Assembly (NCBI RefSeq): GCF_003334815.1
Contig: NZ_QOWO01000006.1
Origin: Escherichia coli
GTDB lineage: Bacteria; Pseudomonadota; Gammaproteobacteria; Enterobacterales; Enterobacteriaceae
Reading direction: 5' to 3' (one strand)
DNA length: 64,000 nucleotides
In this document: positions 61,744 to 61,928 of the stretch, piece by piece
Numbering within the stretch: position 1 is the stretch's first letter
Layout of the letters: the number at the start of each line of letters is the position of its first letter
Notes under the pieces: model-generated
Told to the model about the DNA's origin: nothing
The model's input: only the letters and a program-made list of their open reading frames with translations
Database searches by the model: none
Translations under genes and position numbers: made by a program

Positions 61744-61928
61744 TGCCGGATGCGACGCTTGCCGCATCTTATCCAGCCTACGGGATTGCACATGTAGGGC
61801 GGATAAGGCGTTCACGCCGCATCCGCCAGTGGCGCGGTGCAATTGCCGGATGCGACGCTTGCCGCGTCTTATCCAGCCTACGGGATTGCACATGTAGGGC
61901 GGATAAGGCGTTTACGCCGCATCCGCCA
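61744..61928. repeat. Tandemly duplicated BIME (two ~85-bp REP-pair units, 100-bp period) between eutG and eutH
   Basis: Unit 61744-61828 and unit 61844-61928 are identical except two positions (GCATCTT vs GCGTCTT; GTTCACG vs GTTTACG); each contains two inverted REP units. Confidence 0.85.

Follow-up and report, generated by a model that had tools for sequence, protein, structure and literature searches.

The eutG-eutH spacer and its contents

In the 64-kb stretch of E. coli DNA analysed here (the window), eutG and eutH are separated by a spacer of 216 nt, and two repeat units fill it. Tandem Repeats Finder reports a single array at 61744–61928, with a period of 100 nt, 1.9 copies, 97% matches, no indels and a score of 356. 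A repeat search of the window likewise returns a pair of 88-nt segments, 61741–61828 and 61841–61928, that are 97% identical. When the two copies are compared directly, only two differences are seen within their shared 85-nt core, A61766 versus G61866 and C61813 versus T61913. Tandem Repeats Finder and the direct comparison thus bear out an earlier, sequence-only reading of this locus, which described two units of ~85 bp with a 100-bp period and two differing positions. It also correctly identified the structure in the eutG-eutH spacer as a composite REP (BIME) unit duplicated in tandem: four REP palindromes lie there (Table 1). The likeness of the units is not due to chance; their palindromes belong to a dispersed family.

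REP sites were located with a variable-loop regular expression. Each 100-nt unit consists of a 37-nt CTAC-ending REP, a 12-nt linker, an inverted 34-nt GTAG REP and a 17-nt linker; the length of this last, head-to-head linker is 15–17 nt, depending on where the unit ends are drawn. The CTAC-ending REP reads GCCGGATGCGACGCTTGCCGC(A/G)TCTTATCCAGCCTAC in its two copies. The window comes from E. coli K-12: over 901 nt, the sequence shows 100% identity to strain MC4100 and to many other strains. In MG1655, the spacer corresponds to NC_000913.3 2568108–2568323, and the RefSeq annotation of NC_000913.3 carries no REP feature between eutG and eutH.

Table 1. Features of the eutG-eutH region, in window coordinates.
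Feature	Coordinates	Strand	Basis and remarks
eutG CDS (ethanol dehydrogenase)	60555–61742	+	ORF list; RefSeq annotation of the identical MC4100 sequence (1188 nt, same stop); TAA at 61740–61742
REP 1, Z2-like, ends CTAC	61745–61781	+	REP pattern match; stem begins 2 nt past the eutG stop codon; G-to-A at 61766
Tail-to-tail linker GGGATTGCACAT, 12 nt	61782–61793	+	Sequence; second copy at 61882–61893
REP 2, Y-like, GTAG on the mRNA strand	61794–61827	-	REP pattern match, minus strand; compensatory C/G swap in basal stem relative to REP325 Y
Head-to-head linker AGTGGCGCGGTGCAATT, junction of units 1 and 2	61828–61844	+	Sequence; centre of the Rfam naRNA4 match
REP 3, Z2-like, second copy	61845–61881	+	Repeat search, REP pattern match
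Tail-to-tail linker, second copy	61882–61893	+	Sequence
REP 4, Y-like, second copy	61894–61927	-	Repeat search, REP pattern match; T at 61913
Conserved 31-nt spacer tail	61928–61958	+	eutH ribosome-binding site GGGAG at 61946–61950; common to all E. coli alleles read; alignable with 27-nt Citrobacter spacers
eutH CDS (ethanolamine permease/facilitator)	61959–63185	+	ORF list, RefSeq annotation; start ATG at 61959

REP palindromes and their predicted hairpins

A GTAG/CTAC tetranucleotide at the foot of the palindrome is a defining feature of REPs (PMC3333891), and all four eut palindromes carry it (CTAC at 61778–61781 and 61878–61881; GTAG at 61794–61797 and 61894–61897). With lengths of 34–37 nt, they fall within the 20–40 nt of the imperfect, hairpin-forming palindromes of this class. 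They are also extragenic and belong to a multicopy family, the variant seen here being present in all 5,426 complete E. coli genomes searched, at a median of 8 places per genome. REPs are substrates that TnpA-REP (RAYT) binds and cleaves. The cleavage needs a CT dinucleotide (PMC3333891), which in the eut REPs sits within the CTAC.

Three further REP sites lie elsewhere in the window. A pair at 37012–37089 (inverted Z2 plus Y), just past a stop codon at ~36994, gives the best match to the Rfam naRNA4 model found in the window (92.7 bits, minus strand). Single REPs occur at 12063–12099 and 48369–48404, both on the minus strand; the former shares an unusual loop variant, GCCGGATG...CTTGCC, with the CTAC-type unit of the eut array.

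The RNA hairpins of REP 1 to REP 4 have predicted folding energies of −10.8, −20.9, −16.6 and −20.9 kcal/mol, respectively, with a z score of −5.0 for REP 2. The G-to-A change at 61766 is predicted to weaken the REP 1 hairpin, from −16.6 to −10.8 kcal/mol. Among the alleles read, A at this position is seen only in those of the K-12 type, including a K-12-derived one-unit allele (L002), and all others have G. Across 15 related REP units, 97.4% of cells in the paired columns form standard pairs, and 5 of the 13 pairs show changes on both sides. When the 3′ partners were slid by 1 to 3 columns as a control, pairing reached at most 50.5%. The compensatory changes, taken together with the low pairing in the slid controls, support the REP hairpin. 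For the spacer as a whole, the predicted fold has an energy of −101.7 kcal/mol (z = −3.3), and none of 200 shuffled sequences folds as well.

A scan of the spacer found neither a sigma-70-like promoter nor an intrinsic terminator (a hairpin followed by a T-run), and we reject both as candidate features of the spacer. Within eutH, a 19-nt palindrome at 61976–61994, CATCATGTACATCATGATG, was flagged as terminator-like on both strands. It covers codons 6–12, which encode IIMYIMM, and is probably a by-product of those codons.

Relationship to REP325 and the BIME classes

The Rfam model RF02564 (naRNA4) matches the mRNA (+) strand at 61797–61878, scoring 71.8 bits against a gathering threshold of 59.5 (E = 3.8e-12). 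The matched span comprises a Y unit, the head-to-head linker and the Z-like unit that follows. The source of this model is REP325, the BIME-2 array found between yjdM and yjdN. Like the eut array, REP325 is placed between two co-transcribed genes, has a period of 100 nt, and alternates Y (GTAG) with Z2 (CTAC) units in the same orientation relative to the mRNA. REP325 is longer, with 12 palindromes (5.8 units by Tandem Repeats Finder) versus 4 in the K-12 eut array. Its linkers are ~11 nt head-to-head and 17 nt tail-to-tail, whereas those of the eut array are 15–17 nt and 12 nt, and the linker sequences differ as well. In the basal stem of the eut Y unit, C and G are swapped in a compensatory manner relative to its REP325 counterpart. 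The Z2-like unit has GCCGGATG where REP325 has GCCTGATG, along with one additional loop nucleotide, such that a Z2 apical stem is set on a Y-like base. An exact period of 100 nt is seen in both REP325 (L010, 706–1285) and the eut array despite their unequal linkers, which may reflect chance or a constraint on unit length.

Three kinds of BIME have been described. In BIME-1, a Y and a Z1 unit are joined by a long linker that binds IHF; in BIME-2, Y+Z2 pairs are repeated in tandem, in multiple copies; and atypical BIMEs are chimeras that are likewise tandemly repeated. For the latter two, tandem copy number at a locus differs between strains, and TnpA-REP can recombine BIMEs in vitro (PMC3333891). 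BIME-1 is ruled out here by the tandem repetition, the short linkers and the finding that the IHF consensus WATCAANNNNTTR has no match on either strand of the spacer. According to the classes of Gilson, Bachellier and Hofnung, in the form in which PMC3333891 relays them, BIME-2 and atypical BIMEs are tandem REP/inverted-REP pairs with conserved units and variable copy number. The same is true of the eut array, which has multiple tandem copies that vary between strains. Compared with the Y/Z2 alternation of BIME-2, the Y-like unit matches except for the C/G swap, and the other unit combines a Z2-like apex with a Y-like base. Compared with the BIME-2 linker scheme (S; s, l or r motifs), the eut linkers are short and unlike those of REP325. 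We therefore classify the eut element as a BIME amplified in tandem, either BIME-2 or atypical. Since its Z-type unit is a Y/Z2 hybrid and its linkers differ from those of REP325, it may belong to the atypical class.

Copy number within E. coli

We searched the 5,426 complete E. coli genomes with a query made of the flanks only (the last 300 nt of eutG and the first 300 nt of eutH) and read spacer lengths from an evenly spaced sample of the ranking, which yielded 59 informative genomes (Table 2). The sequence-only reading had predicted that copy number varies between strains; indeed, spacers of 99, 116, 169, 216, 316, 416 and 515/516 nt are seen, and the alleles of 116 to 516 nt that were read are clean arrays of one to five units. 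A second sample of 59 genomes, drawn with a different query, contained 19 genomes with one unit, at least 20 with two, at least 6 with three or more, 4 with a truncated unit and 3 with the 169-nt allele, plus another 7 scored simply as having two or more units. An exploratory search covering 39 chromosomal loci agrees with both samples. In the spread samples, about one-third of genomes have one unit, ~40% have two, ~10–15% have three to five, and ~7% (mostly O157:H7) have a truncated unit. No empty eutG-eutH site was found among the sampled E. coli genomes. The one-unit query behind the second sample gave, at ≥80% coverage, a count of 3,425, but this figure mixes allele classes, as two-unit loci were joined on plus-strand records only.

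Table 2. Alleles of the eutG-eutH spacer.
Source	Spacer (nt)	Genomes	Content
E. coli	99	4/59	truncated unit; identical flanks in all four; two labelled O157:H7
E. coli	116	21/59	one unit
E. coli	169	5/59	BoxC repeat in place of BIME
E. coli	216	23/59	two units
E. coli	316	2/59	three units
E. coli	416	1/59	four units
E. coli	515/516	3/59	five units
E. whittamii			one unit
Escherichia sp. E1V33			three units
Two further Escherichia species representatives	474 and 578		4.6 and 5.8 units; first REP partly deleted
Salmonella enterica subsp. diarizonae	67		single REP 2 nt past the stop, much like the E. coli CTAC unit
Citrobacter sedlakii	60		one inverted REP
Many Citrobacter and Pseudocitrobacter	119–123		head-to-head REP doublet
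Klebsiella species	170–216		Klebsiella-type REPs
Several Citrobacter, a Pluralibacter genome, Yokenella	27–32		no repeat

Unit number differs even among strains with identical flanks. Twelve strains whose flanks (600 nt) are 100% identical to those of K-12 have two units, two such strains have one, and a strain with flanks of 99.8% identity has four. Copy number has therefore changed recently and repeatedly. In the one-unit allele of a K-12-like background, unit position 23 is A and unit position 70 is T. Its 5′ portion is that of K-12 unit 1 and its 3′ portion that of unit 2, the outcome expected of one crossover, slippage or TnpA-REP-mediated event between the units. Mean unit identity is 95.6% within an array and 93.7% between arrays, and array-specific variants are common to the units of the same array, which points to amplification or homogenisation in place. 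At unit position 70, C is found in internal units and T in the last unit of most arrays read, with exceptions at three loci (L005, L007 and L008).

The 99-nt allele, read in strain FORC_044 (L003, 601–699), is a single unit minus 17 nt of the stop-proximal REP. As a result of this loss, no hairpin remains beside the eutG stop codon. The O157:H7 genomes in the samples have a spacer of this same length, with flanks as in FORC_044.

BoxC replacement and a deletion into eutG

The full-length 169-nt allele is present in 384 of the 5,426 genomes (~7%). As read in strain 4621 (L004, 601–769), it contains no remnant of a REP, and a BoxC/PIT/TMECO intrastrand-triplex repeat occupies the same site. In a literal sequence search of the literature, the motif of this repeat, CCCTCGCCCCTTTGGGGAGAGGGTTAGGGTGAGGGG, was matched exactly by TMECO entries 7, 11 and 15 (PMC4666352). 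An Rfam search with the 169-nt allele found nothing relevant. BoxC shares its insertion point with the BIME but represents an unrelated repeat family (PMC4666352), and it is absent from the K-12 window. The middle of the BoxC element, GCGCCGGTGCAA, resembles the head-to-head linker of the BIME, GCGCGGTGCAA.

In strain MRSN346647, the 3′ end of eutG is lost (L062, 2660–2680, where sequence equivalent to 61398–61410 of the window is joined to a Y REP). The junction brings together GCGATGGCGCATC and CGCCAGTGG, fusing the eutG coding region to a Y-type REP of the array, and CGCATC is common to both sides. It is possible that the array contributed to this deletion, which truncates the gene.

The spacer beyond E. 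coli

A scan for EutH in one genome per species gave 51 loci, and the eutG-eutH spacer was extracted from 48 of them (Table 2). All inserts lie 5′ of the conserved tail AAATCAYAAATGACAGGGAG, which by itself is the counterpart of the empty spacer. Because of this common placement, the point just past the eutG stop codon can be regarded as a long-standing landing site for small repeats.

The close similarity of the two K-12 copies had been taken to suggest a recent duplication. This is too simple. Multi-unit arrays are found across the genus, with 3 to 5.8 units in the cryptic clades, and the C/T difference mostly distinguishes internal from last units; in the alleles read, only A61766 is limited to those of the K-12 type. 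The Escherichia array is old and fluctuates in copy number, and the two-copy state of K-12 is one of many, in a range of about 1 to 6 units genus-wide, rather than a fresh duplication.

Two metagenome-assembled genomes deserve comment. In a Pseudocitrobacter MAG (L016), the spacer upstream of eutH has a Y-type REP and a head-to-head linker, GTGACGCGGTGCAAA, nearly identical to those of the E. coli eut units; the other Pseudocitrobacter representative (L015) has a different doublet. The likeness of the former may stem from an ancient shared doublet, horizontal transfer or mis-binning. In the MAG Citrobacter sp. HRGM_Genome_0066 (L011), EutH and the C-terminal region of EutG each show 99% protein identity to E. 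coli, and the spacer holds a one-unit BIME of the E. coli type. This contig is probably E. coli sequence binned into a Citrobacter MAG.

Discussion

Here, we describe a BIME array in the eut operon that differs in unit number from strain to strain. Flanked by the eutG stop codon on one side and by what was originally the whole, short spacer on the other, the array is transcribed within the polycistronic eut mRNA. In our estimation, with moderate confidence, it is best explained as a transcribed two-unit BIME, old and shifting in number, whose hairpins would act on the eut mRNA much as those of better-characterized REPs do. The sequence-only reading had suggested a role in mRNA stability or processing, which is plausible in view of what REP325 does. 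By analogy to REP325 and other REPs, the hairpins would block 3′-to-5′ exonucleases and thereby stabilise the eutS-to-eutG segment of the message. Transcription into eutH, eutA and beyond would be partially attenuated, and more so in longer arrays, because these present a longer untranslated, Rho-accessible gap. In addition, ribosomes terminating at eutG may stall, with a fall in EutG output, because the first stem begins 2 nt past the stop codon. On this account, which we consider the best, expression of the upstream eut genes would be modestly favoured over that of eutH, eutA and the genes after them, and less EutG may be made. How strong the effect is probably depends on unit number, which could change by unequal recombination or slippage between units, or by the action of the REP-associated transposase TnpA-REP.

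Several lines of earlier work inform this account. Classical studies, as summarised in a preprint on REP325, indicate that REPs block 3′-to-5′ exonucleases and stabilise upstream mRNA (bioRxiv 10.64898/2026.03.23.713779). The same preprint reports that, with REP325, upstream yjdM mRNA is increased ~3-fold, downstream yjdN mRNA is decreased ~8- to 10-fold, and a ladder of truncated transcripts is generated. Genome-wide, same-direction gene pairs with a REP between them show expression biased toward the upstream gene, although REP effects are context-dependent and half-lives are not uniformly changed. Part of the attenuation by REP325 depends on Rho, and this dependence was seen with the full-length array only, fragments of 2–4 hairpins being insensitive to bicyclomycin (bioRxiv 10.64898/2026.03.23.713779). 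The K-12 eut array has exactly 4 hairpins, a point against the account given above. Translation of an upstream gene is reduced by REPs located <16 nt from its stop codon (PMC12306157, citing Liang et al. 2015). The eut array resembles the malE-malF REP stabiliser and the stop-proximal REPs, as these are outlined with reference to Liang, Rudd and Deutscher (2015), in that a REP hairpin lies within an operon and downstream of a gene; the first stem of stop-proximal REPs begins within 15 nt of the stop, and that of the eut array at 2 nt.

That REPs sit at one and the same insertion point in Escherichia, in Salmonella, in Klebsiella and in many Citrobacter speaks for a function. Weak constraint is nonetheless indicated by the empty spacers of 27–32 nt in several Citrobacter, Pluralibacter and Yokenella, the presence of BoxC in ~7% of E. 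coli, the loss of the stop-proximal hairpin in O157:H7, and the weakened REP 1 of K-12. The main rival account, less likely in our view but still quite possible, is that the array confers no locus-specific benefit at all and is a neutral or selfish repeat, one member of a REPIN/BIME population upheld by a RAYT transposase and recombination, which is tolerated at this site and drifts in copy number. The extreme variability of the locus, from 1 to 5.8 units with truncation in O157:H7 and BoxC in 384 of 5,426 genomes, speaks for this account, as do the relatives that manage with an empty spacer and the decay of the first K-12 hairpin. The deletion into eutG, whose junction lies in the array, even suggests that the array may carry a cost. 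On the other hand, an empty site is seen in none of the sampled E. coli, species-specific REPs are found at the same point in at least five genera, and the effects measured for REP325, which is similarly placed, are strong. The palindromes are also kept by compensatory changes, although the selection responsible may be family-wide rather than specific to this locus.

In K-12, the cryptic prophage CPZ-55 (NC_000913.3 2558691–2565480; L009, 1–981) lies just past the end of the window, where it abuts eutA and splits the eut operon. For this reason, polarity beyond eutA would be of little consequence in K-12.

A role at the level of DNA or the nucleoid, with the array serving as a gyrase or HU binding site or giving rise to naRNA4-like chromosome-organising RNAs instead of influencing the eut mRNA, seems improbable. 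Without inducer the eut operon is not expressed, and the array would therefore normally yield little RNA. The spacer also lacks an IHF consensus. It is true that the naRNA4 match exceeds the Rfam threshold, that BIMEs are bound by gyrase, Pol I and IHF (PMC3333891), and that naRNA4/HU-mediated condensation has been described (PMC4550694). However, REP325 and its naRNAs were found to have no effect on nucleoid volume or REP-REP contacts (bioRxiv 10.64898/2026.03.23.713779). The nucleoid role proposed for naRNA4, by definition a processed RNA of ~77 nt to which HU binds, is thus disputed.

Finally, the 66-codon ORF that starts with ATG directly after the eutG stop and spans the array (61743–61943) is extremely unlikely to encode a small protein, and we reject it as translated REP sequence, as a period of 100 nt is not divisible by 3, the ORF has 12, 29, 66 or 84 codons with different C-termini depending on the allele, and it is absent from the BoxC allele.

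REP/BIME arrays of E. coli K-12 have been catalogued for decades. The eut array belongs to the most familiar repeat family in the most thoroughly studied of bacterial genomes, and both the element and its behaviour, namely tandem amplification and copy-number polymorphism among strains, are of a known kind. A literature search, with published tables of BIMEs and stop-proximal REPs outside its scope, found nothing on a REP at eutG, and one on Rho-dependent control of eutG or eutH returned only an irrelevant paper. The value of the locus as a discovery is small, since tandem amplification of REPs and BIMEs and its variation between strains have already been described (PMC3333891). What the locus does offer is a natural allelic series at one fixed point of a well-understood inducible operon, with 0 units in related genera, a truncated unit, 1 to ~6 units, and BoxC. 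Such a series is suited to testing whether REP dosage sets operon polarity, and whether Rho dependence appears only in long arrays. With a first hairpin 2 nt from the stop, it is equally suited to testing whether stop-proximal REPs lower upstream translation, for which the O157:H7 lineage provides a natural control.

One can go further and imagine that unit number is a heritable and often reset setting of eut attenuation, an idea that we regard as doubtful. If it were true, each added 100-nt unit would lengthen the untranslated structured gap and attenuate eutH and eutA more strongly relative to eutS to eutG, and eutBCLKR as well wherever the operon is intact. The O157:H7 truncation and the BoxC replacement would then represent other settings. 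Lineages would differ in the stoichiometry of ethanolamine utilisation, while promoters and proteins remain unchanged.
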